From assembly GCA_964187785.1 (NCBI GenBank), contig OZ076409.1, positions 43,898,001 through 43,962,000 on the forward strand: 64,000 nucleotides of DNA, written 5' to 3'. Below, piece by piece: positions 1,832-45,600 of the stretch. How positions within the stretch are numbered: the stretch's first letter is position 1; each line of letters starts with the position of its first letter. The position numbers and the translations under genes are program-made. The notes beneath the pieces were generated by a model. The model saw only the letters and a list, made by a program, of their open reading frames with translations. It did not search any database and was not told the DNA's origin. Origin of the DNA: Amphiscolops sp. MND2022 (lineage: Eukaryota).

Positions 1832-2094
1832 TGGTCTCGCAGATGCTCAGTTGTAACAATCACGGACTCTTGTTTTCTGCATTTCAGCGGACCATCCTTC
1901 CCATTCAGTAGAAAAACCATAGTTACAAAAAGAGAACTGATAATTTGGGTCATTCATGTGTTGAAACTGCAGAATGATAAAAATAAGAGCATTTGTCAGA
2001 GGAATTGAAGATATAAAACACGTCACGATACGTTCTGACATATTGAATCACATTTGAAAGTTAAGAATGAGTCACATTTTGAAAGTTGCAAAAA
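1832..2094 (-). repeat. 3' LTR of BEL/Pao element
   Basis: Colinear with 8947-9210 (roughly 80-85% identity by eye); TSD immediately to the left, PPT-like tract immediately to the right. Confidence 0.8.
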
Positions 2095-2189
2095 TACAGC
2101 CCGCCTTAATTTTCATTGGGAAACTAAGAGAATCTTTTTAATCAAAGAAAAATCAAAATTACAAGTTTGTTGATTGGAGTTTTTTAGGG

Positions 2190-5100
2190 ATTATCCTTTT
2201 GCGGGACGTCAAAGAGTTTTCGCAGTTTGTGGACTGATCTGTTGTATGTCCCGTTGGCCGGCTTGATTTTCAACACTCGAACAAACTTGTCAGGGCCACT
2301 GTAGACATAGGATACTCTTGCTAGGGGCCACTGAAGAGGAGATGTTTTATCGTCAATCACGTAGACGACATTCTTTTAGGTTGGAAGTCTCTTCTTTCCA
2401 TTTGTTGCGTTCCTGGAGGGATGTCACGTACTCTTTTGTCCGCCTTTTCCAAAAGTGGATGGTTAGATTTTGCAAATGAGCCCATTTGTTGACTGGCGTT
2501 GGGTCACTCGCGTCATCGATTGTATCGGATCTGACAACACCAACACTCCGCGGGCGGCAGTGATTCAAGCTTCCCACCAAGACACAAGTGGGCAGTAGTC
2601 AAAATTGTGTCATCATTGAGATCTTCAAATAGCGGAAAATTGGGTGTGAGCTCAAAATTAACTCAATTTGGCAAAAGAGTGTGGTTAATTCTTCAAACGC
2701 AAGTACATTGTTGCCCATCACCTTTCGTAGATGTTGCTTCACTCGCTTGATTGCGGATTCCCACAGACCTCCAAAATGCGGAGCTCTTGGAGGTATGAAG
2801 GTAGAATTGATTAGGAGGCCAGCTGCAGCGGTTTGTAGGGAAACTTCATGTTTTGCCTTCAGGATTTTTTGCAATTGGGAGATCTCTGCTCGGGTTCCCA
2901 AAGAATTGCTTCCATTGTCGCTGTGAATTGTCTTCGGGCACTCTCTTCTGGCAACGAATCTTCTCAAGGCTGCGGAGCATGCTGGTTTTGTCCTGTCGGA
3001 CACTGCCTCGATATTCACTGCTTCACTTGCAAAACAGACGAAGAGTGCCATATATGACTTGACAACATTCCGTGCCAATTTTCGACATAGCAATTCCTAC
3101 TCTTTCGAATGCCTTTGGCCTTTGTTGGGACATCGACACGTTCTTCAGGTAGATCTCCCATTAGGGGTACTGGGGCTTGATACTGAACCAATTGCAGTCG
3201 ACGCAATTCAGAACTAACTTTCTTACAAGTGAACGGAAGCGTGGGACCCAAAAACGAATGCGGATGTGCGCCATCACTTGTGTTATTCCTCCGTGACGTG
3301 TCGACAGATGAGCGTTTGGCGGAATGAAACGCTGATAACTGCTTATTTTAGGAAGCTTAGCATGGGCTAATCTTCCGCCTACACAAAGCACGCCATCGTC
3401 GAGCAAAGGATAAAGTTTCAAGATGTTACTTTCTTTTTTTTTACTTGCGGGGCTAATTCCAGAGTCTTGATTTCTTCACTGTATGCCTTGCGTTGTTCCC
3501 GCCACAGTAATATCATCGTCGAATCGGCAAGTTCAGAGCCTGTCACGTATCAAGGGAAGTCTTTCAACTCTTTTTTCAGTTTCAACGCATAACGTTTTAC
3601 GTACGCAAGAACTCGTAAAGCTTTGTGAAGGGAATTGTATTTTGAAACATCGAGAGCATCTTGATCGAGAGCATCGAGATCGAGAGCATCGGAAGCGTGA
3701 AAGGATATCAACTTTGCTTTTTTCTGTTCGTCAAGAATTTCGTCGGGAAAATGTGCTCAGGGAAACTTCCGGTGATAAGACAGGCAGGCCCACTCCACCA
3801 CAATGAGTGTGCCTGGGTTGCATCTGGATCAATGGCCCGTGATGCAGGGTCGGCTGGATTGTCTTTAGATCTTACGTGATTCCATCCAATTGAATTTCCG
3901 TCGGGAAATTTTGAGACCCGGTTGCTCACAAAAGTAGACCAATGGCTTGGTTCATGAGAAAGCCAATTCAGACGATTGTTGAATCAGTCGAGGCGTATTG
4001 GGTTCCGAATTGAAGGTTCACATAATTGATTGCCTTTAATGTTGACTTGAGGAGGCGCGCACCAAGAAGGGCCGCGCAGAGCTCTAGACGTGGGATTGAA
4101 TTACAATTGATTTGTTAATTAAAGGCAATCAATTATGTGAACCTTCAATTCGGAACTCAATACGCCTTCAAAGTTGCTCTTCGTATTGAGCTGGTTTCGT
4201 CTTCAAAGTTGCTCATGTTGAAGAAGGTACATTCGACAACAATAATGTCACAAAGCGACAAATGCTGAGTGATATTTCTAAAAGTTTCGATCCGCTCGGT
4301 TGACTTTCTGCTGTAACAATCCAGTTCAAGCAGATGATGCAGAAGACTTGCGAAGCCAGCGGCAATTGGGATGACAAGCTCCTCGACCACTTAGTCAACA
4401 CATACCTCGGATGGCGATCAAAGTTGATTTCGCTGAAAGAAATGAACTTGGAACGATTGGTCCTCTTTGATGGACTTGCAGACAAGGTAGATGTTCACCT
4501 GTTCTGTGATGCCTCCGAAAAGGCATACGCTGCCGGCATCTACACTGTCGCCTCCACCACCGACAGCAATACACAATGATTGTGTATTGCTGTCGGTTGT
4601 GGAGGCGACAATGTAGATGCCGGCAGCGTATGCCTTTTCGGAGGCATGACAGAACAGGTGAACATCTACCTTGTCTGCAAATCCATCAAAGAGGACCAAT
4701 CGTTTCAAGTTCATTTCTTTCAGCGAAATCAACTTTGATCGCCATCCGAGGTATGTGTTGACTAAGTGGTCGAGGAGGTTGTCATCCCAATTTGCGCTGG
4801 CTTCGCAAGTCTTCTGCATCATCTGCTTGAGCTGGATTGTTACAGTAGAAAGTCAACCGAGCGGATCGAAAATTTTAAAAATATCACTCAGCATTTGTCG
4901 CTTTGTGACATTATTGTTGTCGAATGTATCTTCTTCAACATGAGCAACTTTGAAGACGAAACCACCTTGGGTTGAGTTGCAAAACATCCCCGTGATTTTA
5001 TGTTGTGGTCATTTCCTCGAAGTTCTAAGTTGTCGTTGGCTTTTTTATACTGGAGGGTAGAGGAAGAACGAGTGAGGATTCACCAATTGTCCATTTTCGA

Positions 5101-7731
5101 TGGGTATCACGATGGTCACATTTAGCCTGCTTCAGTACCTGAAGTATATCATTCTGTAACTTCTTGGCTTCTTCAACAGAATTGGCTCCAGTGAGTTTGT
5201 CATCAACATAGAAGTCTCTATTTACTGAGAGTTGAGCTTCAGGACAAAGCCCTTCAAGATTTGCGCACTCGACGAGTGAGCGAATGATGTGGTAGGAACT
5301 GCTTGCGACACCGTAGGTTACGCGTGTCATCCTGTAGGTATCAAATTGTTGCTGCCTGTCGAAGCGCCAAAGTATACGGTGATAGTCCTTATCCTTTTTG
5401 CAGAGTTCCACTTTCCAATACATCTTTGCAATGTCCGCTGACATGGCAACTTCGAAGAATCAAAACCTGAGCAAATTGTCGAAGTGGTCTTCTTGAACCT
5501 TCGGACCTACAAGTAGACATTCTTTCAGAGAGACTCCTGTGGTTGTTTTCGAGCTTGCGTCAAAAAGAACACGCAATGTTGTCGTCGAGCTGTCTATCTT
5601 TAGCACTCATTGATGTGGCAGGTGATAGTTTGGGAAAACATCCAGTTCCACGCTTTCTACTTTTTCCAGTTCACCAGGTAGAAAACTTCTTGAATGAAAG
5701 CTGCGTATTTCTTGAGGAGAGACTCATCTCGATGCAGAGTCCGCTCCAAGCGAAGAACTCGCTTCATTGTCTTTGCTTTGCTGTAGCCAAGCCTTTGTGA
5801 TTCCTCCTTGATTGGCATTTGGACCACAAATCTTCCCTTCAAGTTCCCAGAATTTTAACAACAAATGGTCTGTGTCTGCTTCAGAAGAACTTACGAGATG
5901 TGTTGTGATGGAGTTTGCATGCGAGATCGCGACCGGACCGGTTACAACCCAGCCAAGAATGAAGTCTCTTAGATAAAGTCCATTGTCTTTGATTTGTTGT
6001 CTAGGAGAATTTCTTCAACAACATTGGCTCCTAGAAGTGCATCTATTTTCCTTAGAATGTTGAAGCTCGGATCTGCTAGATTCAGATGGTTGAAGTGTCT
6101 CATTTGTGAAATATTAAGCTCCCGAGAGGGTATCACAATGGTAAATATTGAAATCAGATGCAAATTGACACTCCACAAGTCTTTTGACTCTGTGTTGAAC
6201 CAAGTGTCGTAATCGTAGCTTGATTACTTCTTGTCGAAAGCATTACTTCTCTGCCATGTTTGCAGTGATAAAACTGGCTTGGGACCCGGAATCCAAGAGT
6301 GCTCGCATTCTAATTGGCTTGCCACTCCCATTTCGTATAAAATCAGCTACAGTGGAGAGAAGGACTGTATTGTTCTTATTATCAGTGTTCGAATGCCCTG
6401 TTGTGAACTTAGAGTTCGAGTCTGTGTGAGACGCCGAACTGCCGCTAGCTATAAAAGTGTTCCTCCTGTTGTCACCAACTTGTGGTGGATTGGAAGGTCT
6501 ATGAGTTCGATGGCGCAGCGTGTGGTGCTTCATCCTAAGTTCTCGGCAAGAGAACTTTGACTGGCAATCTTTCGAAGAGAAGAGTGATCAGGATGGTGAT
6601 AATTATAACAAAGTCTTTTTCCTTTGACGAATTGATGTCGATTGGCAACTGACATGGCTTTGAACAGGGACAAGAATTCTACAAGCGATCCTCACTGCAA
6701 TTTTTGCACGATGGGCTGTATACTCAGTATGATTGGATTCGCTTATCAGGCCGTTAGGCGTTTTGAGTTGCGTTTACTTGACCTGATGGCTTAGAGCCAC
6801 CAATCTCGAGTGCACGGCTTCGAGTGTCGAGGAATTTTGAAAGCTGTTTCCATGTGAGAAAGTCTGTTCCGGGATGGTCCAGCTGCCACTGCTTGCGTAA
6901 CTCCGGATCCATTTTCTCAGACGGAGAATGATCGAAAATTGCATCCAAGTACTCCACTGGTTGTCTCAACTCCCTCAAGTCTCGTTTGTTGTTTCAAGTA
7001 GTTTTCTCAGACCGGTGTAGAATTCAGACTTCAGTGAGTTTTGGGACCAAACTGCGTGTAAATGGGCTTTGTACAATGCTCTTGTTGTTTTCATAGCGTT
7101 CGTGCAGAAGTTCCCAAGCGATTTCGTAGTTATAATCATTGATCGTAACTGAGCTAATCAGCTTGGCTGCTTCTCCCTTGACACAAGCTTTCAAATAGTT
7201 TGATTTCTCAGAGTTCGATAATTGGTTGTTGGAGTCGAAAGATGCTCTGAAAAGATCAGCAAAGCTCATCCAGTCCGTATAAGAACCCGTAAACGATGAA
7301 AGTTGAAATTTCGGGAGTTTCAGTTTGCTTGAATTCCGGCTCCCATCATTTGTAGAGGTACGTGGAGAGTTCTCCGTGGCTTATGATGCCCTTTTATAGC
7401 TGTCAATCAGTGTTGACAAACGTGCAACAGTCACACTTGCATTGTAATGGAACTTTGTCGAAAGCTCTATGTCTTGAGACAGTTGATCATCATCATCGAG
7501 AGGTAATTCTATCTCAACGTCATACAGATGGATGACTTGGATATTGTCTTCAAGCGTCTTTAGAAGTGTTTCGGCTTCAACAAGTTAATTTGGCGTTGCG
7601 ATCACCGTGGTTAGGAAGTCATCCACTTTCTTTTCGAGATTTGTGAAGGCACCCTTGTTCGCACCCCTAACTCTCGAAAGTCGTTTTTCGTCAGCTGGTA
7701 AATGATTGGATGGATGAATGAGATCCGTCAT
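2190..7731 (-). pseudogene. BEL/Pao gag-pol polyprotein (many stops and frameshifts)
   Basis: ORF fragments 7024-7269, 6754-6978, 6243-6533, 5969-6178, 5657-5842, 5025-5444, 4418-4822, 3708-3929, 3161-3421, 2599-3093 and 2353-2580 carry Pao-type gag, PR, RT, RNase H and IN motifs in the expected order. Confidence 0.92.
4192..4964. repeat. About 770-bp fold-back palindrome (386-bp arms, 1-nt centre at 4578) within BEL pol
   Basis: ACACAAT-G-ATTGTGT centre; mirror ORFs 4334-4579(+) and 4418-4822(-) encode near-identical RNase H peptides. Confidence 0.95.
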
Positions 7732-8008
7732 GATCGAAGATGATCACCTTGTAGAGGGGGACTAAAACAGTGACTTTTACAGCTAAAGGTCCCCCGGGAT
7801 TCCAAATTCGACTGTAAAAAGGCTGATGAAGTAATGTGAAGTCTTGATGCGCAAAGCTACTGTGAAAGTGATCTGAGATTCTTTTGGCTACTCAGACACA
7901 CAAAAAGGCAAAATTTCAACGTTGAATTCACTAGCCTAACCTCAAGATAACCTTTAAGTGAATGCAAAATTTGAAAATTCTATCATTTAAACGTTGTGAT
8001 GTTGAGTT

Positions 8009-8663
8009 TCACCAGTCATTGCATGGACACTGGCACTCATCTCTTTTACACTCAAAGAACTTGTCATTACCACGCTGGTTCAGCTCTTTTCTGTAGTTTT
8101 TGTATAGGATTGTTTCTTTAGTAAGATTTCTAAGGTTATGGAGACCGTCTTCGTTGAGGTGTGGGGCGTCGTCGGGATAAAAATAACGGACCCCAGTAAT
8201 ATTTCGGGCCACAGTTCGATAACTCCAAGTAGTAAGTAACCCCTATAGGTAGCAAGGGGCTGGTCTTTGGTCTTTAGCTCACCTACTGACAGCAAGAAAT
8301 CGTTTACTTGCTTCAAACGTACTTTATTTTCGTTTCGTTCAGGTCTTGTAAGAACGTAAACTACTTCGGCACGGGGGCACAAGAGATTTGCAAGATCAAT
8401 ATTCTCGTGAGTCACTTGACTTGCAGTTGTCGTAGTTGGTTTTTTGAAAAAATACATGTCGTTTCCCCAGACAAAAGGAATGATGATATCAAAAATATCC
8501 TTGGGGGAATAAAATTGTAGACGTACCGGACACAAGCACCAGGCAGAGAAGTATACTCAAGTTTCCTGCTTCCAAATTCCTTGCCTGTGAGTCGGCAATC
8601 AAAAGGGTTTTTCGTGGATGAAGTTCTGTAGACCTGATAACGTGACTGTCTTGGTGTAGACAT
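8009..8663 (-). pseudogene. SGNH/GDSL-family hydrolase (esterase-like) ORF inside the BEL/Pao element, frameshifted
   Basis: Joining frames gives KTLLIADSQAR (block I, 8588-8596), SLPGA (block II), DIIIPFVWGND (block III, 8458-8466), VYVLTRPER...KQVNDFLL, YPDDAPHLNEDG (block V DxxH, 8159-8170) and a Cys-rich tail CKRDECQCPC. Confidence 0.8.
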
Positions 8664-8946
8664 TCAGAAACCTCTCAGAATGGTCATTGGGACAAGGGTA
8701 TTAGATATTTGATTAATAATACAACGCCAACTTTACTTGAACAAGTTTCACAAAATAATTCCGCAATTCAGCTCTGTTTTTTAATTAATTCGGCAAAAAC
8801 AATCCACATCTGGAATTGTTCAAATCTATAAAATCGTAAATTCGAATTTCATCATTCAGTATGTCAATAGGTTCTTATTAGAACGAACTAAAAGGTTTTT
8901 GAAGACAGGTAAAAATCTTGGGACTGTAGTCTTTAGGAGCCCGGGG

Positions 8947-9210
8947 AGGTCTCGCCCATGCTCCATTGTAACAATCACGGACACTTGCTTTCTTCATTTC
9001 AGCGAACCATCCTGCCCATTCGGGAGAAAAACCAGAGTTACAAAAAGAAGATCATTAGTTTGAGTCATTCATGTGTTGAAATTGCAGAATAATGAAGATA
9101 AGAGCTTTGTCAATGGAATTGAATACAAAAAACACGTCACAATACGTTCTGACATATTGAATCATGTTTTGGAAGTTAAAAAATGAGTCATATTTTGAAA
9201 GTTGCGAACA
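8947..9210 (-). repeat. 5' LTR of BEL/Pao element
   Basis: Begins TGTTCGCAAC on the - strand directly after the TSD; homologous to 1832-2094. Confidence 0.8.
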
Positions 9211-9647
9211 ACACCCATTTTTGAAACTCTGTCATCTATTTTTGTTTCATTGTGTGGCACCATCGCAGACGGTTTGGTCTGTGAATTGATGTCAACAGGT
9301 CTTCACGTTCGGCTTTGCGTCCAAAAAGTCCTTGACTGTGCATAATTCGTTTGACACCAGACACTGTATACAAGTATCCCATGCTCTAGTTCAATTTGAG
9401 TCGAAGAAGTCAATCGTGGGCAAAGGACAGAAAGCTGCATCGAATCTCTCACATTTCTCCTAGTAACTTTAGACCTTCGTCCTGGTTGTTCTTTCGCTTT
9501 TACTGATCTGGTCTGTTTTTAATGTTGGATGACACAGTTAACTGAGCTCTTATTTGTGTCCATCATATCGGCTCTTGCGCGTGTTTCTCCTCGTAGGTAA
9601 AAGCGAATGATCAGTCTTCGAATGGGCAAGAGAGTTCTTGGAGCCAT
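9211..9647 (-). pseudogene. Tc1 transposase, N-terminal DNA-binding part
   Basis: MAPRTLLPIRRLIIRFYLRGE... then RIMHSQGLFGRKAEREDLLTSIHRPNRLRWC; joins in frame to VFTEES at 1831 when the BEL element and one TSD copy are removed. Confidence 0.8.
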
Positions 9648-10544
9648 ATTTAAAACGAAATGATGAGTGTGGAACAAGAATGGGTAATGTAACGTTCGAA
9701 TTTCGAGATCTATAAGCGATAAAAATGCTATACTGACTGTTTTAAACAATCAATTTCCGGTTTCTTTGTTGGTTTATTCACCTTTATTCTTAGGTGAATA
9801 ACAGTTTTTCGCGCTTGCCCCGATTTCAAATTGCTATACTGTAACAAGTTCACGCAAGTTCAACAAGGGGAACCATACATTAATGGACAAAGGGTCGAGG
9901 AGGGAAAAGGGTCCCGGAAGATGTTTCAGAGGTTTTTTTGACCGAAATGGATATTCCCGTATTCATGAAAGGCTTGCTGAAGGCGATGTCTTGCTACCTG
10001 TCAAAGTATCAGGGTTTGTCAATGCAGCTCTATGCAGGTGTGAATCCTAAATTAAACATAACCAAATCAAGGCAAGTTTGCCACAAATAGAAATGAACTA
10101 ATGAAGACTATGAAGAGTCAAACAAAACTAATTTACAATATAGTGTCTTGACTGACAACATGTAGAAATCACCGATATGATCTCGCTGCTCAGCGGGCTT
10201 CTTGTTCAGAAAAAAATTCAATATTCGAATCTTTTTCTGTGGAAATTGTTCATATTTTGGATGTTTTCGTGGTTTTTGAATTTCCACAGTGCTCAATAAC
10301 AAAACAACTAGTTTTTAACCTAAAATTGCACAGAGAAAATGTTTTTAAAAGAGGTGTAATATGATTAGAAAATTTTCAAACTTTTCAGTTTATCGAACTT
10401 TTTTGCAAAAGCCCTGAACATGTGTCGCTACTGAAATAGCTTCGGGGCAGAAACTTTCCCGCTGCCCGTTGCATTTTGTGCTTGTTTTTGCCGTATTCTA
10501 CAATCGGTTCTTTCCGCAGAAATTTACTTCGTTCCCCAGCGATC

Positions 10545-17000: not shown

Positions 17001-20000
17001 TTGAGAATTTTGAAACAGTCTCATAGTGCCGAAAACGTAGAAAGAGGAGACACTTCGGGCTTTTTGAAACTTCAGTTTGCTGCAAAATATCAAAAACCTT
17101 AAAGGGGTGACCCTTTGGAACAAAAAAATTCGAAAAAAAGTCGCACAGTGCCGAAAAAAAATTCAAAAGGGGGACCCTGTTGTCCCGTCCGGTTTTGCAT
17201 CTTTCGTTAGAGATTGAGTACGCGAAAGGGGACCCTTTGCACTAACTTATATGCTTTTCCGCTTGTCGGTGCAGTAGTTTAGTAGTTCTGTAGAAAAAGT
17301 GTTCACTACGCATACATTCTGTTATCTGACGAAAAAAAAACTTGCCACTGTAATAGTCGGGCACATTTTCTTAAAATGCACCGACTAAAAATTTAAAAAT
17401 GACGATTGACAAGTTACAAAAATCTTTACTTTACAGTGTTATATCATTTCTCGAAGTTTGATTTGTTTTCAAATAAAGCAAAACCTTCTAATTTGGATGA
17501 CAATTTAGACTTTTGCTCTTCAGATTCTGCCAAATTTTGACTACATCTTGGCGGCCATGAACCCCATGGCAAGATTTTTACCAAGATATTACCAAGATTC
17601 GTTATTCCAAGATCAAATTCTATCAAGATTAAAAATTGAATATTTCGGAGTTGGTGCCTTATTGGATTTTAAAAATGTTAAATTCATATCACAAGAAATA
17701 GAGCGCGTTCGAAGTCTTAAACTGCAATAATAGCTGTCTTTAGCTTTTTGGTACCAAGTGGTACCTTTTCAGCTACTGACAGACTGTCAAGCCAGTCAGT
17801 TTCCTTGATCTTCACTGGTTTGTTTCCATGGATTTATTCCCACTGCTTTGGTGTAAATCAGAAACTCGTGCAAGTATGAAGCAAGGATAAGTGAGTTTTG
17901 ATGTTGATGTATCACTTTTGATGACTATCAAACACAAGCACCCCAGTCAAAAGAGCCTTAGCGGTTGTGGTTGGAATATTTTGCTCGAATCAAATCAGCA
18001 GATAATAGCAGCTTTTGTACTTGTGTTTCATCGACGATTATAAACAATTTCCGTCCCGACTATTATTAAGTTCAATCGCCCAAAAAATTCAGTTCTCAAA
18101 TGAAAACCTCAGGTAACATATCTTTCTGCTAATGTAATTTCAACTTTTTAGGTCTCTTAGACAGCTTATTATTGACTTCGAAGAAAATTGTGGGGTGATA
18201 TGAATTTGTATTTCCGGAATTTTCCGCGAGCGTGGGTGGATGGAGTACGTGCGCAATGGGCCTGCCTCTCAGGATAAGTGGCACCTGTACTGGAAGTGTG
18301 CCACATTCAAGCCCTCGGACTACGACTTCTTGCTGGGTTGGCAGGTGATCAATCACTTCCCCAAAACATTCAATATCTCCAAGAAAGACTGTCTCGCACG
18401 AAACCTAAAAAGGTAATGATGCATTGTTTGTATCTTTAGCTGTAGAGGGAAGTCAGATTTTAGCAAAATTTGTGGCTATTTCTTGAACATGCGTGTTTGC
18501 CTCGATTAAAAGACTTCATTTCAACACTTTTATTCATTTTTGTCAACAACTTTTTTCTTTGGTGGTCTCTCCCCTCGTTTGGATGTTCTAGCAAAGAAAA
18601 CTAGAGCCTAAAGGGCAACTTTTTGGATGTTTTGGGCACGAATTCATTCCAATTTTGATTTAAAAATTCGAAAAAAATCTAGATTGTGGGATTCCCGTTC
18701 CAAGTTGGAAGAAAGTTCAGTTTTTGAGTTGGCCTCTGGTCTAAACGGCGTCCGGGGATGGTAAAATGTTTCCCTTATTTTTAACATTTTTATACTAACT
18801 AGAAAGGTAGACGCAACCAAAGGCTTCCCGAGGACAAAGGCGAGGGAATATTTTTTCTTTTAAATTTTTATTTTGGAACTCGATATAGATCTATATGCAT
18901 AAGCGCATGAACTAGTTTTCCGATCAGTAGACTTTTCAAGTTCCAAATGTTCCGATAACCATTTATAGTTATCATTCAGCATCCCCCAGCCAACTCCTGG
19001 TTGAATTTACCTGCAAAAAATTCTATCTTACAATTCTGGTTTGTACTCGAACTGCTGTATGAAATATTGATATTTGGAAAATGTTGAAGAAAGTTCCTGC
19101 AGTGTTTTAGAAGGTAGTTGAGGGGGTGTTAAGGACAGAAAACAACCAACTTTGCACTTCGGTATTAGAATTGCCATACCAAAAATTTTCGACACCATTT
19201 TAATCAGCATTTTGTTTCGAGAATCAGGTAAATTCAATTTCTGTGAAATATTTAACTAGTTGTTTGAGCCGGAAGCTGCATATTATTTGTTAACTCGGAG
19301 AAGATATGGTAAGAAGGGTGAATTAAATGTAATACAAATCAACACAAAGTAATGATCGTTAATGTATGAACTGTTCACTATCTGTATCATAGAGTTCAAC
19401 TTCGACTAATGTTCATACTGTAAAGCTCTTCATCGTAGGCACTGGCAGGTACTATGAACTAATTAGTTCATCTTTTTAGTGACGTCTACTTCTCATTCCC
19501 CCCTTTGTAAATCAGGGAAGCCATTGTTGAGCTTCTGTGGGTTCCCACTTGACCTTGACATCAGCTGTTGGGTTTTCCTTTTTGATTTTCGGAAAGGGTT
19601 GTCGCAGGAATCGTTGTAGTGGGCTGGAGAACTCTAAACGACTTAACCAATTAGAAGTACTCTACCCCTCCTAATTTTACGGTTCGCTTAGCGCCTTTTA
19701 TTCTACTTCATCTACGAAGGTCAGGTGACTCTGTTTGTATTTTATGGTTTTTTAATTCCTTTTTGTCTACTATTTTTAAGTTACCTCTTTTAGGGCTTTT
19801 TTTCCTTTTCTTCGGAGTGGCTTCGGTATTCACAGTGGCACGTATTGGCGTCTGTTGTTCGCCTTCCGGTTGTTTTGGTTGTGTGCCGTAACTGGTGCTA
19901 CATTGTACCGGCGTAGACGGTGGCGGTGTGTGTATCTCGGGTGCGGTTTCTTCTTCGTGCCGTTGCGTTTCCGCTGTGACGGTAGTGTTACTTGCTTGCG

Positions 20001-23000
20001 GTCCCTGTTCTTCCGTTGATGCGTCTTGTCCGTTGCTCGTCTCTATGACATCGGCGTAGGTTGATCTTTTCTCTGGCTTTGTTGGAAGGGTGTAGCTGCA
20101 TCCCGGTTCGTCGGTGATACCGTATACTCGTTTGTGGGTATCGCAGTACTTTCCTTGGCTAAACTTTCCGCATCTGACACAGCGATTTGTTGGTTTCTTC
20201 TTTTCCTCTGGCTTTTTCGGCAGCTGAAATTTTATTGGTTTCGACGCTAATTTTTTATGAATTATTTTTCCGTCTGACGTTGTTATAGTGTGTTTAGTTT
20301 CATTCACGGCCGTCAGTATTTTGTTGGTTTTAAATCTGCATTTCATTGCATTTGGTTTGTTTTCTTTTTCAAAAAATTGGTACTGTTTAAATTCCTTGCT
20401 TACCGATCTGTTTCTTTTCTTCGAATCGTTAGGAATCAGATAATCTGCCATTTATCCCTCTGAGTCGTTGATTGTAAACATCTGTAGCTCAGTGGGTTGT
20501 GCTGAAACGTAATTGGCCAGTGTCTTTTTCCAATTGGAGAGAAGACATTCTGATCGACCGATTAGATTGGTTATTGCCGTGCGTGGCTTACGTCCGTAAT
20601 GCATTTGGAATGGCGTCATATTCAATTTACTATGCGGAGTTTGTCTAATTGTTTTAATTGCCAATTTAACACTTTCTTCAAATGTTAGGCCGTCTGCCAT
20701 ATTAGCTCTAGTTAATGATTTAATTGTCCGTATCGTTCTTTCTACTTGGCCGGTACCTGTATGTAGATTCGGTATACATCTAATGCGTTTTATATTTTCT
20801 TGGTTACAAAATTCTTTGAATTCGTTACTTTTAAAACAACTACCGTTGTCGGTGCGTACGCTCCGTGGTGTTCCGTTATCTGAACAATATTCCGTTAAAA
20901 ATTTTAAAACTGTCCGTGTGTCGGTGTTTTTACAAATTTTTGCGGTGGGCCATTTGCTAAAACGGTCGACTGCGACTAAAATATATACATCGCCGCGAGT
21001 CTTTGATTTTATTGGACCGGCAAAGTCCAATTGTATTTCTTGATTCGGTTCGGACAAAATTTCTAAATAGTTTTTCTCCGTTGACGGTAATTGCGTTGTT
21101 AAATTCTTACCTGACGACCTGCAGCTGGGACAGTTTTCCGCTTTTTCCTTTATCTCCCGATAGAGGCCGGGCCACCAGAAGGCTGCGGATGATTGGTCCA
21201 TCTTTGTGGCTGATGGGTGTCCTTGATGGAGCATGGCGATGATTGTGCTTCTCATTGCTTCAGGTATAACGTTCTTGTCGTTATAGAAAAGTAGACCGAA
21301 TCGGGTTGTCAGGTGATATCTGTGTGGCCGATAGGGATAAAAGATCTCCTCAATCTGGTTCTTTTCGACGGCAGTGATAGCATTCAAGATTTTTGTGTCT
21401 TTCGCCGTTTCTTCTACTAGCATCGGCAAGTCGAGTGCAAAATCTTTTTCGGCCTTCTTGATGGTTTCCTCTGTCCGCTCATTGTGTTCGTCGTCTAGGT
21501 TGTTCGTCTTGACGGTTTGTTTCAATCGGATTAGGTTTATTGTTTCGTGTTTCCGAAACTTTTTGATGGCGTTTGTGGGACATTTTTCTTGTCTGACATT
21601 GCTCGTTTGGCTTTCAGTGTCAGATGACTGTGTTATCCACGATTCGTAATTGTTCTGCTGGAACTCTTTCAGCGGCGTCGTACCCAGCGTGTCGCAAAAA
21701 CTAAAGAATCTGTTGTATATTTGTACATTCAATTCAACAATTCTTTTTCGTACTTGCTGTGAGGGTCGGTATTCTTGAAGTCTTTCATTGTGTGTCCCTT
21801 TTCCCACGATTCTCAATTTTTCAGGTTTCAGTAGTCTCTTTCTCTCTGTCCAGAGTCTGAGAGTGTCTGGTGAATGCCCTCTTTTCTTGAATATGAAGTG
21901 CATGTCGATTCCGTTTATTTTGTCCATACTGGATGGCTTTGCTGATCTATTTGAAGAATTCACGGATGCGATTTTATTAACACCGTTCAGTGGTATCGAA
22001 GTTTTGAGCAAATGAGTTTGTCTATTTTGTTCACGCTTACATATGCCGTGTTGTGATTGGTCGATTTTTTGTCTCGGCTTTGTTCGTTCTGTGAATCGTT
22101 TTATGCTTCCGTTCGTTTGAATGAAATCGAATAAGCCGTGTATTTGGTTTATTACGAACTCTTCTTCGGATTCCGTTTCGTTTTGACCGTTTAAGTTATT
22201 CTCCGCTGCGCTTTCATCGGTGTTTACGATCGGATGTCGGCTTAAGTAGTCCGTCAATGGGATGTTTTTACCGGCGGTATATTGAACATTTACGTCGAAG
22301 TGGCTTAATCTGTCTAACCTCCGTGTTAATCTGGCGGTATATTGTTTATGTGCCCTGTTCCGTTTTAGCAACGGCTGTAGCGCTTGGTGGTCAGTTAGCA
22401 AATTTACCCTTTTTCCGTATACAAAATACCTGAAGTATTCTAAACCCCATAGTGCCCCTAGCAACTCTAACTCGTTAATAGCATATTTTCTTTCGCAATC
22501 AGTGAGAAATCTGCTAGCAAATGCGACTGGTCTGAAAATTTCTCCTTCCTTCTGCCATAGTGTCGCTCCGAGTCCCGTATTGCATGCGTCTGTTGTCACA
22601 TAATTTTCTTTCTTCGGGTCAAAGTGGGCCAAGCATGGGGGTTCAGTTATTTCTTTCTTTAAATTCTCGAAGTCTTCGTCAATTTTGGGTGTCAATTCCC
22701 AGTGAGTTTCTTTCTTCAACAGCCTCCTCATTCTGTCTGTCTTCTTGGACAGGTTATTGATGAACTTCGCTAGGTGTTGTATTGAGCCGAGGAAAGATTT
22801 TAGTTCTTTAGCGTTCTTTGGAGCCATCAGTTTTGTTATTGCTTCCGTTTTATCTTTTATTGGTTTCACTCCTTTTTGATCAATGTGATAACCCAACCAA
22901 GTTATCTCCTGTTTAAATAATTCGGTTTTCCTCTCACTTGCCCTGTAACCGGCGTTTTGTAGCTTTGTGAGTACTTCCCGAATTTCTCGTTCGTGATCAT

Positions 23001-26000
23001 CAATTGTTCCGTTTGTTACACATATGATGTCATCTAGCCATACCGGTGTTTTAAATTCCAGCACTTTGTCGATGTCTTCCTGAAACACGGTAGGAATATC
23101 CGACAGTCCGTAGAATCCTTTCTTGAAACGGTAATGGCCGGTGAAATCACCGCCGATTATCGAAAATACACAATGTCTGGCTGCCTCCGCGGTTAATTTT
23201 GCTTGTCCGTAGGCGTAGTCCAAATCGATCTTTGACATCCAGATTTCTCCGTCGCTTCGGGTGATTTCCGCTGATATATTGCTGATCAGTTCTTCCATAT
23301 TTGGCATTGTTGCTTTTCTTTTGACACATGCCTCGTTCAATTTTCTTGAATCGAGGGCAATTTTTACGGACTTGTCTTTCTTTATTGTTATGACAGCCGG
23401 TGAGACGAAACAATTTTCTGTGGTGTTGTTTGCGTTTTCCAGGTGTCCGGTTTCGATTAGTTTCTTCAGTTCATTTTTGACCGTTTTTTGGAAATGTATT
23501 GGCACTTGTCGTCCTTTTTGTTGTATCGGCTTTGTGTCTTTTTTCAGTTGGATGTCGATTGCCAAATCTTTGATCGTATGGTTGTTTTTGAATGGGTCTT
23601 CGTATTCTTTTACGATCTTCTGTCTTCTTTCATCCGTTTCGATATATCTGATAATGTTCGTGTTCGTGTTCCCTTGTAGCCCGATTTCTAGTTTGTCCAG
23701 CCAATCCAGTCCCAGTAAGGGTTGGGTGTTTTTGTTCTCGGTTATTAATATGGGAAGTGTTATTTTGCTTTTCTCCGTTTTTACTTCCAACATGGTTTCA
23801 CCTTTGAACTTTATCGGGTTTTTATTTACGTCTACAAAGCTTTTTGTGGTTTTGTGTAATTCCGCTGTATTAATTATAGGCGGTATTATCGTTACCGGAG
23901 AGCCAGTGTCAATGATAAATTCTATTAGCTGTCCTTGAACCAATAGTATCGCTTTGTAGAAGTCGATCCGATTTATGCCGTTGACGGATTGGATGTGATC
24001 AATTTCGGGCCATGATTCGGTGTCACTGTCCGTTGACGGTCCTTTTTGTATCCGGCTGACGGTTTTGGATTTGCACACTTTGGCAAAGTGACCCATCTTC
24101 TTGCAGTTATTACACTGTGCTCTCCGTGCTGGACAAATATGTTCCATTGACCAATTTGGTTTACCGCAAAAGCGGCAATTACGGTTTGGTATTTTCTTCT
24201 TCCATGTTTCTGCGGTTTTTTGTTTCCGTATTGGTTGTGTGTGGGCGACTTGTTCTTCACTTGATGAACTTTCCAGTTTGACTTTTCGGGGTCGTTTATT
24301 TGCTTTTTTGTCTCCGTATTTGCGGTTGTAATTGTCTTGTTCAATGGTTTCGAGTACCATTTGAAGTTTCAGCGGTCCTTTTATGAATTTGTCTCGGGCT
24401 TTTTTGTCATTAATTGTTGCTGCAAATTTGTATGTAATGATTTCTTCCGGTGTGATGCTGTTGAATTCACATTTTCGCTCGATGTCCACTAATCTCTTCC
24501 AGTACTCGTCTAAAGTTTCATTTTCATCTTGTTGGATATTGAAAAATTGTGCCCGGCTGTGGAATACATTCCTTGCTGGTATGAATGTTTTCTTGAATAG
24601 CTTCAGCATTTCTGGGAGGTCAATATCTTTTAGCTCTTTGCCCCATTGTCCTCTCATGATTTCATGTTTGGCCTTGGGGCCTAAAGCCCAGATGACGTCT
24701 CCCTTGATATGGTACACCGTATGCGGATCCATTTGGTCGACGCCTTGATCCATCAATTCTTCTAGATTTCGGTTGTATGTGAGGTGTATGTATTCCGAAA
24801 TCTGCTCCCACCACATTCGTGGGTTTATCTTGGTGAGATCCGTTTCTCTATCCGATAAAATCGGTATTTTGTACTTGTTCTTCTCCAGTCTGTCTGCCGT
24901 CGTCTGGTTCATTATTGTCTGGTTTGCGGCTTGTTGCCCAGATCGTTCTGAGGTATTTGGGTCTGGGTTGTCCATTAGATTGCTGACTGCGCCATGTTAA
25001 GTCGGAGAAGATATGGTAAGAAGGGTGAATTAAATGTAATACAAATCAACACAAAGTAATGATCGTTAATGTATGAACTGTTCACTATCTGTATCATAGA
25101 GTTCAACTTCGACTAATGTTCATACTGTAAAGCTCTTCATCGTAGGCACTGGCAGGTACTATGAACTAATTAGTTCATCTTTTTAGTGACGTCTACTTCT
25201 CATTATTCACTTTCATCAACGAAAGATTACTACAGAGAATTCTAAGTTTTTGGCTATCAGCATTTCAAAAGATGCCATTGACATGAATTTATAGGATGAA
25301 AGCAGTGTACGGTGCGCATCTGTTCAACTTTTTCCCAAAGACATACATACTTCCAAAAGACTACCCCCGGCTGATCAGCCAGTACACGGACATGAAGGAA
25401 TGGAACCAGTGCGTGAAGAACCAGCTCAAGAGGTCTGCCAGACTCAGTCCCCGGAAAAACTCGGCCGGAAAGCGGGACTCCTCTCAAACTAGCGATTCAG
25501 CCAGCAGCAAAAACGCGGATGGCAGAGGTCGTAGATTGGAAATAGAGATTTCAATTTGAAAGATTTGTAATTTTCTTCAGACTTACATTCGGCAAGTAAA
25601 ATCCTACACTGAAAAAACTAATGCCATACTCTCACCTTCGCTAGTTTTAGAAATCAAATTTGGATGAATTCAGCAGAAACTAGAAGCCTTATTTTAAAGA
25701 AAAATATTTTGATCTATCACACAAGTTGAACGTGAAAAATCAGCAATACTTGTACGAAATGGACAGGTGACAATAAGTTTTCAAGTATCAACTAAGATAA
25801 ATATATTTTTGCTCGCTTTCTGTTTCCCAGAGTGACCGAACCTTATGATGTAATTGTTATTACTTTTTGTTCAATTATGTTTTGTAATTATTACAAAACC
25901 TCTCGAAATTTCCTTCCTCATTGAATAAAATTTTTTAAATAGACGAGCCGATCAATGCACATCCAGTTCTAGAAGTATTTTGATAAATGCCTGGTTTCAT

Positions 26001-29000
26001 TTGGACATCTTTATTATGTTCTTCATTTCCAACCGACACAGGAGATTGGACTACGTCACATCACCGCAAACGGAGGAGCAGCAGTCCGTCGAAAAGGAAG
26101 TACTCTTACAGCAATAGCAGCAGTGGAACCGATAAAAACAACAACAACAACAACAGTAGTAGTAGTAAAAACACAAAGAAAAACACAAAAAGCAATAAAA
26201 GCAAAGGATCAACCAGTCCCAACAAAAACGGAAACCGGGGCGATTCTAGCGACAACAACTCAGCAAGAAAGTCAAGCGGGTCTCCCGTTGGTAGTAAAAA
26301 CAGCGAAGCAAGAAACGACGAGAAGAGCTCAAAAACGAAAAAGGACGAAAAAACAAAAGATACAGCTAGTGAAAAAAAGAGTCAAGTGAAAAACGACGTT
26401 GACAGAAAGGAAGACAAGAAAACTGATGACAGAAAAAGTGGGAAAAGTCCGGAAAAGAACAAAGAAAAGAAGGGAGGTAGAAAGGACAGTAACAGTTTGC
26501 AGGGTAAGGTAACTGTCGATTCTAAGGCAGACAGCGATGACGGAGGTCGAAGCAAAAGATCAAATTCCGAGGGTAGTATCAAGAAAGGTAACCCCCAGGT
26601 ATAAAAGAGTGTGCGATACAATCATTAAAAATGGATGAAAATGAACATACTGTATCTTCCTTTTCAATTAAATAGAATTTATTTTTCAAAGCTTTTATGC
26701 AGCATTAGCCATTCAAATTTTGTATTCTAACTACAAAAACTAGACCTTTAGATTACAAGGGCTAGATTATAGGGCATATATAAAAGTTACAAAACTCAAT
26801 GAAAATAATGATATAGATGACAAAGTGTGGATCTTTGGAAGCCATGAAAAGATGCATGGCAAATCACTTGCTGAAACCTTTGTTTGGTTTTTATGACTTA
26901 TACAGCTCGAAACTTCAGTGTAAAAATTCATCAATGAACGAACTAGTGTAACGTTTGCCTGTCTCCGATTGAAAAGTTTGTTCCAGTAAATAGTCAGTTA
27001 CCGTTGATGACTTCCGCGTTTTTACAAAGCCTGTCCGAAGAACTGCAAAGGCTCAGAATCACATTTCGCCACCGTACCCATAACGAGAAAGAGAGCAAAT
27101 CAAACAAAAATCGCAGAAAAGACACCTGAAGTCTCATTTAGCAAAACTGCTATTTACGACAAGACGGACTTTGCACAAACTGGAGCTTTTCTTAGCAGAT
27201 TGCTACATATGGTGATAATTGCCTAAATAAGTCAGTTCATTCGACCAATCAAGTATACGGCGCCTGTATTCCCCTTCTAATTGCCAAATTGCCGCATGTC
27301 AAGTGTGCTGTAATTTATAGTTTTCTCGTTGTAAGAACTCGTGAGATACGATTTCATAATGTCTTGTACCTCGAAGAAATTCACCATTATTACCATTCAT
27401 TTTTGAACGTCTGTTTTAGCAGTGGTTTTGAAAAAAAGCGTAATTCACGTTGCTGACAGCAAATAAAGACTGGATCAGGCGGGTGAGTACTATGACGGAG
27501 CGGAATCCTCCTCTGACGGGACATTTTATATCTAAAGGGGGCAAAAAGGATCCATGGTTATGGGCGCCTGTCCCGGGTATATACCTATGCATTGGGTTCC
27601 TCCATCTCATCTCTACCAACGGAGAATCAATGGTAGCAGCTTGCCGTTACATGGAGACAAACCATTTTTCGGCGACCACAGAGGGATTGCTTCGGGGTTG
27701 GGATTACTTCCCTTAATGATTTTAAAAGAGCCGATCCTCTGGTGATTAGCGCCAAGTATGACCCGGAGGCACCAAGTATGGCGGAAGAGAAACCAGAGCT
27801 CTTTCACATTTTTTACCACGTATGTATGTCATTTGAGGCTTTCCGCCTTGTGTTTAACGGTATTTTCTTGGAAATGACCTGTATCAAATCATTTTCGGTA
27901 TTTTCTCTGACAAGTACATGTGGAATTATCTTGATCCTTTCAACAGGACACTCGGTAATGATCTAGCGTGCCGCTATTGGGCCGCAGAGAGTGTTAACAG
28001 ATGTTTTGCAGTCTATTTACATTTTCTAGCCATGCAAGCTGTTAGCACTTGCTCGGACGAAACCTACAATATGCCAAAACGAACGTTCACGTTTCACCCT
28101 TCCCATTTCTCGTGCAGACCTCCCAAAGAGATGGTCTTTAGTGAAATTGTAGCACAAGTGCTAACGTTTCTAACGGCCTAAATCATTTGCCTCTGGCTGG
28201 TTCGGTCGAAGAGAAATGATGGAAAGAAAGTGCGACTCCTCAATCCGGGTTGTATGAATTTTCGAGCTAGATCAAAAAACTTTTTTGGCTGCATCAAAAT
28301 TTGTGTGCGATCGTTTGCAAATCTTACATGCCTTCAATAGTGGGACAGACTACATTGGGCTATTTATAGACGGAACTAGTGGTGCATTACTGAAACTCAT
28401 TAAGAAAAAAATTGTCCTCGGGTTCGAAGGAGTGGGTTTGAAAAACTCTATCATAAATGCTTGCTCTTGTGCAGTCTAAAAGACTATTCTATTATTCTAC
28501 ACCTAAGTTGCAGAGCCGTCATTTTGCGAAGTGTTCAATTGAAATTTATATAAAAAGCTCATCATCAAAATCCGTGAAAAATGCTTTCACGGGTGATTAT
28601 ATTTGAATTTAAACGATCGAAAAATGAAACGAAGTAATACTTGTATCGCACAACCTTGTTCCCAGAACCCAGGTGGTATTACATGGATAGCCAAGCCGTC
28701 ATCAAACTCGCAAGGAAAGGGAATCCATATAATCAGAGACCTGAATGATTTGATGTTTAACACATCTACTGTGGTCCAGAGGTACATCGACAAGCCTATG
28801 CTTATATCTGGCTACAAATTCGATCTCAGACTCTACGTGATCATTGCCAGTTTTCACCCTTTGACAATCTACTTGTACAGGGTCAGTATTTGCCATGATG
28901 ATCTTTCTAGTTTTCGGTTTTCAACAATGATATGACACTTTCTGGATCTTGTACTGAATCTTTTTCAGTTGGAGTGTTCAACCAAAGACTCAACGTTCAA

Positions 29001-42633: not shown

Positions 42634-45600
42634 GTTTGCTTTGTGGGTACTATTCGGATGACGAGAGTTGCCGATTGGAAGAGCCTGTGAATAACCACAA
42701 TTTGGAATACGCTCAAGAGCTTCCCCAAAGTTACCCCTTCACTTTTGAACTCAACTCCCGTTCGGCTTACACCAGCGACCTTTATAATGTCACCGAGCAA
42801 AGTTAGCTACATCTCGAATCGACAAAAAGAGCCAATTCAACGTCTAGTTTTCAGTTTAGAAATCAAACAAGATCAAAATACTGCCAAGTTTCATTCGAAC
42901 TTGGACTGTCGTTTTCATATAATTTTTGATCATTTAAATGTCTTGAACGGACGCCTGAGGTAAAACTCTAGCTCTTGGTGATTAAGTTGGAGTTAACTTT
43001 AGTAGCTTCAAAGTTCGTGGAAGAAACCATAGTGGATTTATAGCATTTAAAATATTCCCAAAGCGCATTTAGAGAACGTTCCTGATTTTGTAACCAGATA
43101 TTGGTTCCTTCTATTGAGAATCTAACACGATTGCCATATTAGGCAACAACTTGCGTTGAAACTACGGAAAAACGGAATATTTTACCATAGTTAAAGAAGA
43201 AAATGAACACAACTAAATTTAAATATCCGGGTATCAATTGTTGACCATTAATGACCAATAATTGACACCTTGAATGTTTTTCCACAAACAGGGAACTCTT
43301 TATTGCTTATTCATTTCGTCAGCATTCGGATTCATTTTGAATATCATAACAAAAAATTGTTCCTTGTGTTCTATATTCTTGGTTGAATAAGAAAACAAAT
43401 AAGTTTATTTAAAAGTATCTTTTCAGAACATAAATACTGTCAGTGAAACGATCTATTCTCTAGCTACGAAAAGTATCTAACTGATGCAATTTCGATATAA
43501 GGCAAAGTAACATATGTTGTTTACCAATATGTAAGCATATGTATAAATAAATGTCTATGATGAGAATGATCTAAAGTTTTGTGATTGACAGTGTCAACCG
43601 AAAGGATCGGTTCGGTATGTGTACCGTATAACATTTCCTCCCTTCTAAGTTCCTTTCGGTTACTGTTTCGAGGTTCCCGGTGTTGGGGTGTTTTCTCGAA
43701 TGAAGTCGGCTGGCTTCGTCAGTGGTTTCGGCGGCTCCTTTCGACTGTTCCATCTCTCGGTGATACCTGTAACAATTTTAATTCTTCAACATCATATCCA
43801 AAAGTTTTTTGTGTATGTAACCCCCCCGTAACTGTTCGGGTGTCTACTTTCACGGTTGGACCGTCTTATTTTTTCATTTTCGGTAATTTTATTATTTATT
43901 TGGTTCTCACCCGGATTTATCTCACCGTCCGTATGAAGATTCAATTCATCTTCTGGTGATGTTGTTACGGGTTTGTATTTTCCGTTCCTCTCTGAGGTGT
44001 CGTGGTTTTCGAAATCGCTTTCTTCCTCCTCGATTTCACCCTCCTCACTCTCAGAGTCGGATTCGGCCCGTTGATTTTGTACAATTTTCAGCTTTCCGTT
44101 TAATACAACCCTGAGGATTTCGTTCCACTGGGTGTATTTTCCATCGACCCCCCTCAGGCAATGTCGGTTTTTTGGGTTGATGTTGTCTCCGATCTTCGGT
44201 GTTGCCTTCTTGTCTTTCTGAAATATAATCAGTTCCGAAATAAATTTTCGGTGGATTATTTTTCCGGTATCAGTGGTTACGGTGTGTTCCGTACCACTTA
44301 TTGCCGTGTGTAATTTTCATTGAAATCTACCTTCAAGTGATTTCTTATTATGTTTTTTTTTCGAAGAATTGAAAAGGGTATTTACCAACCGGATTTTTCT
44401 TCTTTGGTGTTTTTTCGGTCATAGCTTTTTCTTCCGTTTTTGTTCGGGCCATGATCAGGTGGTTTGATACCTCTCCCTCACCATTTCTGGTTACGTAGAT
44501 CGGTATTTTCGGTCGATTGTTAGCTGAAACAGTTAGTTCCGACCATTTAGAAAGGAAAGTTTTTCCGTCTTTTATTATATTTGTTAGTTCGGTTCGTGGT
44601 TTCCGGCCGTGATGTAATTCAAACGGTGTTACTTTTAATCCCGTATGTATTGTAAATCGCATTACGTTTAATGCTTTATTTACACATTCGGTTAGGCATG
44701 TTTTATCCTCTAGGTTCACGATTATGAGGTTTTTCAATGTTTGTATCGCTCGTTCTACTGCTCCCGTGCCGGTATGCATTCTCGGTGTGCTATATTCGAT
44801 TTCGATGTTTATCGATTTACAAAATTTTTTGTATTCTTTTGAAACGAACGCTCCACCTTTGTCCGTTTTTATTTTCTCTGGTAGTCCGTACAGATTAAAA
44901 TTTTGTTTCAGAAAGTTTATTACCTCTTTAGTTTCCGAGGATTTGCAAATTTTTGCCGTTGGCCATTTGCTGAATCTATCTATTGCAATTAGGATTTGAT
45001 GGTCGCCGTTCAAATTTTTATTGTTCAGTTTTCCCGAAAAATCAATTTGGATTTCTTGTCCGGTTCGGTTAGTGTTTTTAGTTTCCCAAAATTTTGTTTC
45101 GGTAGTTGGTATTTCAAGTTCTTACCCGATGACATGCAGGCCACACAGTTTTTTGTTTTATCTTCTATTTCCTTTTGCATGTTTGGCCACCAGAAGATTT
45201 TGGCCTCGGCTGACATTTTGGTAGTTCCGGCACGTCCGAAATGCAGCGTGTCTAGCAGTTTCTTTCTCAATTCAGCGGGTACAACAATTCGGTCGTCGTT
45301 GAATGTCAGTCCCCATTTATTGTTTAGTTTCTCAAAGTTTGCTCGGTAGTGTTCTGGAGCCGTATTCTTTTCGCCTCGCCTCATTGCGTCCCGTACTCGG
45401 TTGAGTTCGGCGTCCGTTGATGATTTTGCGATCAGCGTCTTCAGATCGAGCATGAAGTTGAATTCAGCTTTTTTAATTGTTTCTTCGGTGTTCTTTTGAT
45501 TTCCGGTTGTTTTTTCGATGATTTGGTTGATTTGAATGAATTGGGCCTCTTTCCCCTCGGTATTGTATGCTTTTAGGTCTACGATGGGGAAGTTGTCGCC

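Follow-up and report, generated by a model that had tools for sequence, protein, structure and literature searches.

Why retroelements carry SGNH esterases has been an open question since the domain was found in the ORF1p of CR1. A locus in Amphiscolops sp. MND2022, where an SGNH/GDSL hydrolase gene lies ahead of gag within a BEL/Pao retrotransposon, raises it anew: does the gene belong to the element, and what could its product do there? The locus was analyzed within a stretch of 64,000 nucleotides, referred to as the window. On balance, we favor the reading that the window holds a dead BEL/Pao copy with a stand-alone SGNH gene of ~200 aa before gag, whose product, a predicted acyl esterase, is likely made from the front of the element RNA and likely acts on anionic membrane lipids at particle assembly.

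The BEL/Pao Element and Its Surroundings

The element occupies positions 9210–1832 of the minus strand (7,379 bp) and is flanked by a 5-bp target-site duplication (TSD). Its features are, from the 5′ end:

9211–9215, TSD ACACC on the 5′ side, identical to 1827–1831
8947–9210, minus strand, 5′ terminal repeat of 264 bp, beginning with TGTT and bounded by its similarity to the 3′ end
8940–8965, minus strand, weak candidate primer-binding sites with TGG at 8965 or 8958, overlapping the last bases of the repeat
8664–8946, minus strand, non-coding stretch from the repeat to the SGNH gene, common to sister copies (matches of P0150, P0096 and P0111)
8009–8663, minus strand, SGNH/GDSL hydrolase pseudogene with four frame breaks (ATG at 8663, TGA at 8011–8009); intact sisters have 211 aa
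7732–8008, minus strand, spacer from the SGNH stop to gag, with a pyrimidine-CAG ending at 7812 (splice-acceptor-like, by eye) and TGG at 7804
2184–7731, minus strand, decayed BEL/Pao gag-pol (Pfam), gag ATG at 7731
4189–4967, inverted duplication of 389 nt (96%) within the Peptidase_A17 region
2095–2110, minus strand, candidate polypurine tract, a purine-rich tract directly upstream of the 3′ repeat, read from the repeat alignment
1832–2094, minus strand, 3′ terminal repeat of 263 bp, ending with CA and without a copy of the SGNH gene
1827–1831, TSD ACACC on the 3′ side, the same bases as at 9211–9215

Belpaoviridae are described as having LTRs of 0.2–1.2 kb, a length of 4.2–10 kb, the domain order PR-RT-RH-IN and a purine tract (PMC8742986 and the accessible part of PMC3118150), and their ICTV profile comprises only gag, pol and env (PMC8742986). 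The element in the window, with its TSD, is alike in LTR size, length, domain order and purine tract. Its Pfam matches follow one another as DUF1759 (2e-20), protease (0.03, weak), RVT_1 (2e-4), Peptidase_A17 (9e-17), Integrase_H2C2 (3e-8), rve (1e-6) and DUF5641 (2e-11), i.e., PR-RT-RH-IN with BEL-type domains, with RNase H falling in the Peptidase_A17/RNase H region of the pol. In gene content, the element departs from the profile, the SGNH gene being extra. Judged from these domains, its BEL/Pao membership rests on pol, and the SGNH gene is a variant feature. The two terminal repeats are identical in 224 of 262 ungapped columns (85.5%). The copy of the gene at 8009–8663 is a pseudogene in an old insertion, and the element is dead.

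The flanks of the element, one with FQKWV and one with VFTEEST, rejoin in frame to a transposase-like ORF, and thus no flank DNA was lost. This split ORF, at ~1250–1826 and 9216–9750, is presumably Tc1/mariner-like, judging from its motifs; none of its five fragments had a Pfam match at E ≤ 0.05. The arms of the 389-nt inverted duplication at 4189–4967 in pol are 96% complementary, lie 1 nt apart and are younger than the insertion, and a further inverted pair of 50 nt is found at 3991–4167. Elsewhere, the window contains two Gypsy-type elements, at 19708–24996 and 43148–49561. One Gypsy-type gag-pol ORF encodes 1,514 aa, its RNase H and integrase being separated by a long stretch outside any Pfam match; the second copy is frameshifted, with repeats near 43148–43501 and 49208–49561. 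Two plus-strand ORFs of 205–206 aa (25987–26604 and 57223–57843) have no Pfam match; the former is of low complexity and adjoins a Gypsy-type element. A 200-base run of N at 53983–54182 marks an assembly gap.

The Decayed Gene in the Window

An earlier note on this DNA had described an SGNH gene between the 5′ LTR and gag within the TSD-bounded element. This description was borne out. The motifs LLIADSQAR, SLPGA, FVWGND, DDAPHLNEDG and CKRDECQCPC all occur on the minus strand in that order from 8663 to 8009, between the LTR edge at 8947 and the gag ATG at ~7731, and the gene lies inside the repeats at 9210–8947 and 2094–1832 and the TSD ACACC. Some details changed. The gene is indeed a frameshifted one of ~200 aa, but its pieces number four rather than three, i.e., the Ser block at 8489–8674, SLPGA at 8412–8663, GND at 8080–8556 and DxxH at 8009–8242. 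Likewise, the FVWGND block is present, but WGND is a decayed form, as intact sisters read GGND. A frameshift-aware alignment to the intact sister P0015, in which each break was written as X, has 175 identical codons among 209 aligned and zero internal stops; it places the breaks near 8610, 8550, 8500 and 8260–8230, the last with a short extra stretch. The Ser, Gly, Asn and Asp-x-x-His blocks are all still legible. A Pfam search gave no SGNH match at E ≤ 1 for any of the four single fragments, whereas the intact sisters do match.

A Divergent SGNH/GDSL Family

With residues 18–125 of the middle fragment as query, 10 proteins were retrieved from 16 candidates, including the intact 211-aa form. 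The intact sisters of the window gene form a 17-member cluster with seven 211-aa copies, 1–10 residues apart and located on different contigs. A full HMMER scan returned 189 representatives at E ≤ 0.001, of which 122 also passed E ≤ 1e-10. Conservation was assessed in an alignment of 28 rows, 31–80% identical to P0015, with counts taken over rows that have a residue at the position. The catalytic residues S25 (25/26), D159 (26/28) and H162 (27/28) and the oxyanion residues G42 (26/28) and N68 (25/27) are conserved, and the Ser, Gly, Asn and Asp-x-x-His blocks are present family-wide. Also conserved are an N-terminal His (H10, 21/23) and a C-terminal Cys-x4-Cys-x-Cys motif (C199, 22/25; C204, 22/24; C206, 20/24), which together form a possible metal site. 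The complete motif set was found in 7/8, 8/12, 11/12, 8/8, 13/15 and 11/11 full-length members of six young clusters.

Pfam Lipase_GDSL_2 matches 17 of the 28 aligned members at E ≤ 0.01, with scores below its gathering score of 32.9 bits (21.2 for P0015 and 32.6 for P0209, the best scanned member). By sequence, the family is a divergent SGNH/GDSL subfamily. Searches of the PDB by sequence gave no match with P0004 and nine rows with the profile, none of them significant; the best (E 0.074) was a chance helical match to tetanus toxin, and three GDSL enzymes followed at E 0.42–1.6. The AF2 model of P0015 (pLDDT 91.8, pTM 0.90) has the alpha/beta fold of SGNH hydrolases and matches these enzymes. 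In VIA, it aligned with sialate O-acetylesterase 7pzg over 163 residues (Z 16.9, rmsd 2.5), and the rows listed were mostly SGNH/GDSL esterases; the best Foldseek match was PAF-AH (E 3.4e-6). The ESM Atlas offered, as a lead only, eukaryotic GDSL clusters at 0.93–0.94. The concern of the earlier note that no SGNH profile or structure might match is thus dispelled by the intact sisters, which match both. On the evidence of the model, the protein is an SGNH hydrolase with a Ser25/Asp159/His162 triad and predicted esterase activity.

The protein is basic, with a pI of 8.8–9.9 in all ten family proteins tested, and no clear transmembrane span was seen in any of the ten (best 19-residue hydropathy 0.74–1.62). 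It is encoded by a stand-alone ORF of 195–213 aa in the window's sisters and at two further loci, L001 and L002; the gene at a third locus, L003, is alike but broken. No fused form was found among 7,997 candidate proteins of 441–2000 aa, the only match being a bird phospholipase B (E 4.9e-4); this is weak evidence.

Association of the Gene With the Window's BEL Family

The earlier note had proposed that a BEL/Pao lineage carries an SGNH gene as a 5′ accessory, and this proposal is supported by the pol domains, the fold, the intact sisters, matches in the flanking DNA and a second BEL family. On both sides of the gene, the non-coding DNA of the window is matched by sister proteins that have an early start or continue beyond their stop. 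P0150 matches LKTTVPRF just past the repeat end, at the repeat junction, P0096 and P0111 match 8847–8664, and the read-throughs P0017, P0008 and P0064 match down to 7860. None of the sister proteins reads past 7860 toward gag, so that adjacency to gag in young copies is something we infer. A search with the LTR reading frame found two proteins, both ending inside the LTR; one of them, P0225, is located on a contig of the same size (16,718) as that of the intact P0020. As a control for this comparison of contig sizes, the SGNH and ORF1 clusters of L001 share at least four sizes (15 × 15 members listed), and none was shared in 19 other set pairs among the members listed (15 per cluster). Three pol fragments of the window that were found in the protein collection are singletons, and five of 10 exact look-ups there were absent, including both versions of the L002 DUF5641.

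The read-throughs and the equal-size contigs tie the sisters to the LTR and leader of the element, which argues against a one-off LINE insertion. The earlier note had itself named such an insertion, of an independent LINE fragment into this single BEL copy, as an alternative, and since the gene family is present in LINEs, the idea is a natural one. However, the sisters share flanking DNA from the LTR junction to 7860, an intact sister and an LTR-frame protein are found on contigs of equal size, no similarity to LINE ORF1 or ORF2 occurs anywhere in the window, and a second BEL family has the gene. We consider this alternative very improbable. That the SGNH gene is a fixed part of the window's BEL family is strongly, though indirectly, indicated by these sequence comparisons.

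A Second BEL Family With the Gene Probably Inside the LTR

A metagenome scan with one peptide pattern gave 153 pattern matches, which were reduced to four loci (L001, L002, L003 and L004). L002 represents a different BEL family, on a single 1.7-kb contig, and its SGNH protein is 44% identical to P0015. It shows:

1–201, end of DUF5641 (Pfam, E 3.4e-8), followed by the purine tract
865–1461, SGNH gene, between the polypurine tract and the primer site
1529, pyrimidine-CAG (splice-acceptor-like, by eye)
1541, primer site with the canonical 18-nt tRNA-end layout

We take TGTTGG at 171 to be the start of the LTR, in view of the pattern of BEL ends. By the mechanism of reverse transcription, the sequence between purine tract and primer site is LTR. 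Thus, the gene of L002 would lie inside an LTR of ~1.37 kb, a likely position for which the indications are strong but indirect. The 40-member L002 cluster includes the frameshifted P0240, which matches L002 as far as base 1537 and continues in unrelated sequence; this single case agrees with a departure at the LTR end as expected of a 3′ or solo LTR. Similarly, P0235 and P0238 are found on contigs of equal size (230,476), differ by 4 residues and have three private columns in common, whereas they are 9–17 residues apart from the other ten full-length members of the cluster. This pattern, again a single case, agrees with twin LTRs. L002 has a single AATAAA, at 298, which would place the gene in a very long U5. 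In another cluster, that of P0057, 13 of the 15 listed members are on contigs of 0.6–1.3 kb, the size of a collapsed LTR-like repeat, and this cluster possibly represents another LTR-resident family.

The End of the LTR in the Window

For the element in the window, an LTR of 263 bp with the SGNH gene internal is the probable arrangement: the 3′ repeat ends with CA directly on the perfect 5-bp TSD, with the flanks rejoining in frame. It is possible, albeit rather unlikely, that the gene is located within a long LTR (~9210 to 7805) as in L002, and that the 3′ LTR was shortened by 1.1 kb at its distal end or integrated by way of an internal CA. In line with such a long LTR, no clean primer site follows the 263-bp repeat, and the order of LTR start, 550–700 bp, SGNH gene, short spacer, pyrimidine-CAG and TTTGG resembles that of L002. 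The position of the 3′ CA speaks against it, and 12 or 82 of 248 windows, according to the gap costs chosen, resembled the L002 primer site at least as well as the site at 7804 did. Moreover, none of the 23 window-family proteins are contig twins, against one pair among 15 in the L002 family, a weak contrast that holds among those listed. Whichever LTR end holds, the SGNH gene is ahead of gag on the sense strand.

The candidate primer sites, at 8965, 8958 and 7804, are all weak, and a scan for the canonical tRNA-end layout picked neither 8965 nor 8958. Primer sites at the latter two positions would leave 12–19 primer-site-like bases on the 3′ end of the element. The likeness of the 3′ repeat (1832–1850, minus strand) to the 5′ end extends beyond a TTACA-A-TGG junction (8965–8948) by exactly 18 nt; if this junction is the primer site, the right end of the copy bore a primer-site-like tail when it integrated. 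No tRNA gene for comparison was found in the window. A relic primer site at 7804 was rejected, its likeness to the L002 primer site not being significant, and an alignment of L002 with the non-coding DNA of the window did not rise above shuffles.

LINE Settings of the Gene

The other loci from the metagenome scan are LINEs. L004 is a copy of the LINE family of L001, and L003 represents a second LINE family with the same order. L001 shows:

240–863, SGNH gene
1173–2111, ORF1, followed by APE and RT

In both families, the separate SGNH ORF precedes ORF1 and APE-RT in a three-ORF layout (240–5018 in L001, 222–4059 in L003). This layout is not among the ORF1 types described in the accessible part of PMC4120745. 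ORF1 of L001 has 312 aa and a PHD-like start according to an ESM Atlas lead; Pfam found no PHD in it. That the SGNH gene stands on its own before ORF1 in the two LINE families is strongly, albeit indirectly, indicated.

The SGNH proteins of L001 and L003 are 37–40% identical to P0015. The element context is known for four families, of 39 non-redundant rows. On the separation of the two BEL-linked from the two LINE-linked proteins, two trees disagree: its bootstrap value was 96% with 39 rows and one model, and 32% with 24 rows and another model. Scans of genome_contigs for the family gave no match. The only viral_contigs locus, L005, was dropped, its match of 30 aa to a phage tape-measure-like gene being due to chance.

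Possible Functions

In all four known settings, the SGNH gene would be the 5′-most ORF of the element RNA. It may be the first ORF to be translated, in which case splicing or re-initiation would give access to gag or ORF1, and the cassette may be exchanged among LTR and non-LTR retroelements within a single host lineage. Since the gene is common to two BEL families and unrelated LINEs, its product is likely an accessory enzyme that these retroelements have in common. By analogy with the esterase of ZfL2-1, the protein could dock on negatively charged phospholipids and cleave an acyl chain, and might thereby help the RNP or particle to be assembled, transported or released. Action on membranes or lipids is thus conceived by analogy. 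Cell-to-cell spread, suggested in the earlier note, found no support, the protein having no transmembrane stretch.

The main functional rival to action on membranes is a counter-defence or host-modifying deacylase: by stripping a host lipid signal, glycan or protein of acetyl or acyl groups, it would explain why unrelated retroelements in one host all keep the gene. The gene is indeed common to BEL and LINE families whose particles differ, and it stands alone, with no coiled coil or fusion to a structural protein found, although that is a weak point. Furthermore, the nearest folds, PAF-acetylhydrolase and sialate O-acetylesterase, are small-acyl (acetyl) esterases, so that the substrate need not be a membrane lipid. 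However, the host substrate is putative, and the basic charge of the protein matches that of the lipid-binding ZfL2-1 esterase (accessible part of PMC3905857). We hold the deacylase to be rather unlikely. A selfish or neutral hitch-hiker, i.e., an ORF taken from the 5′ end of a LINE by template switching and without benefit, is improbable. Close relatives at LINE 5′ ends (L001 and L003) would fit such an origin, as would the accessory ORFs of rotifer LTR elements, which evolved neutrally within the genome (accessible part of PMC5408684). Yet, the two BEL-linked proteins are only 44% identical, and nevertheless most young copies of both have kept the frame open and the catalytic motifs complete, which requires long selection on the protein.

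Returning to an accessory enzyme that acts on membrane lipids, a bolder extension may be considered, although we regard it as doubtful. A portable esterase cassette, always the first ORF, would be present in dozens of unrelated LTR and non-LTR families of one animal lineage and kept under selection; in one BEL family, it would lie inside a giant U5 in both LTRs, and lipid or acyl hydrolysis would be rate-limiting, or serve counter-defence, for all retroelements of that host.

Comparison With Known Systems

SGNH cargo is known from LINE ORF1p and Penelope-like elements (PMC3905857; PMC4120745), Ngaro (PMC9210276), Vesta ORF3 and Athena of rotifers (PMC5408684) and Helitrons (PMC4021074). For BEL/Pao elements, neither position described here, i.e., before gag or inside the ~1.37-kb LTR of L002, is in the profile of PMC8742986. 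The words "esterase" and "hydrolase" do not occur in the main text of PMC3118150 and PMC12440569, and PMC7599744 mentions SGNH only in a reference. In the literature searched, to which Repbase, supplements and most subscription papers did not belong, neither a BEL/Pao element with an SGNH gene nor an esterase inside an LTR was found. The gene widens the described BEL/Pao set beyond gag, pol and env.

The Vesta elements of bdelloid rotifers carry a GDSL ORF3 after gag and pol, which they share with Athena/Terminon Penelope-like elements; their extra ORFs showed no departure from neutrality (PMC5408684). As in the elements described here, a stand-alone GDSL/SGNH ORF with intact catalytic residues is found in an LTR element and is common to retroelement classes of one host. 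However, the GDSL gene is the third ORF in Vesta, whereas the window gene is upstream of gag and that of L002 is past the purine tract, before the primer site. Moreover, the accessible text does not name BEL/Pao as a carrier, and the gene described here also occurs in APE-type LINEs (PMC5408684).

In CR1, L2 and RTEX, the esterase is a domain of ORF1p together with a coiled coil or a zinc finger/leucine zipper (PMC3905857; PMC4120745). The ZfL2-1 esterase hydrolyses esters and binds anionic liposomes, its ORF1p was dispensable in a HeLa assay, and H191 and S228 are transposon-specific residues of ORF1p esterases of this type (PMC3905857). The proteins described here are like it in the SGNH fold, the Ser-Asp-His triad, the basic charge and the position 5′ of the replicase, but they are encoded by a separate ORF with a C-terminal Cys motif, in L001 before a PHD-like ORF1, rather than as an ORF1p domain with a coiled coil (PMC3905857). 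ZfL2-1 ranked 27th in Foldseek for the P0015 model (E 1.5e-4), and the PDB sequence searches gave no match to it at E ≤ 10.

Other element classes are involved in Ngaro, of the DIRS order, where the SGNH ORF is located after the tyrosine recombinase, i.e., 3′ (PMC9210276), and in Helitrons, whose texim SGNH genes bear introns (PMC4021074); with the present case, they share SGNH cargo of unproven function in a mobile element. The sORF1 and sORF2 of the MDG1 group are accessory ORFs before gag, as here, but sORF2 is a small FAST-like membrane protein, in contrast to the soluble enzyme fold without a transmembrane stretch reported here (accessible part of bioRxiv 10.1101/2025.03.14.642691). The small, soluble, stand-alone version, of which numerous intact copies occur naturally, lends itself readily to expression and assay. 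MMTV sag, also an accessory ORF encoded in an LTR, lies in U3; the gene of L002, in contrast, would be close to the 3′ end of its LTR. If the settings in BEL/Pao, within an LTR and at LINE 5′ ends all hold true, one accessory enzyme crosses the divide between LTR and non-LTR elements, always at the front of the RNA.
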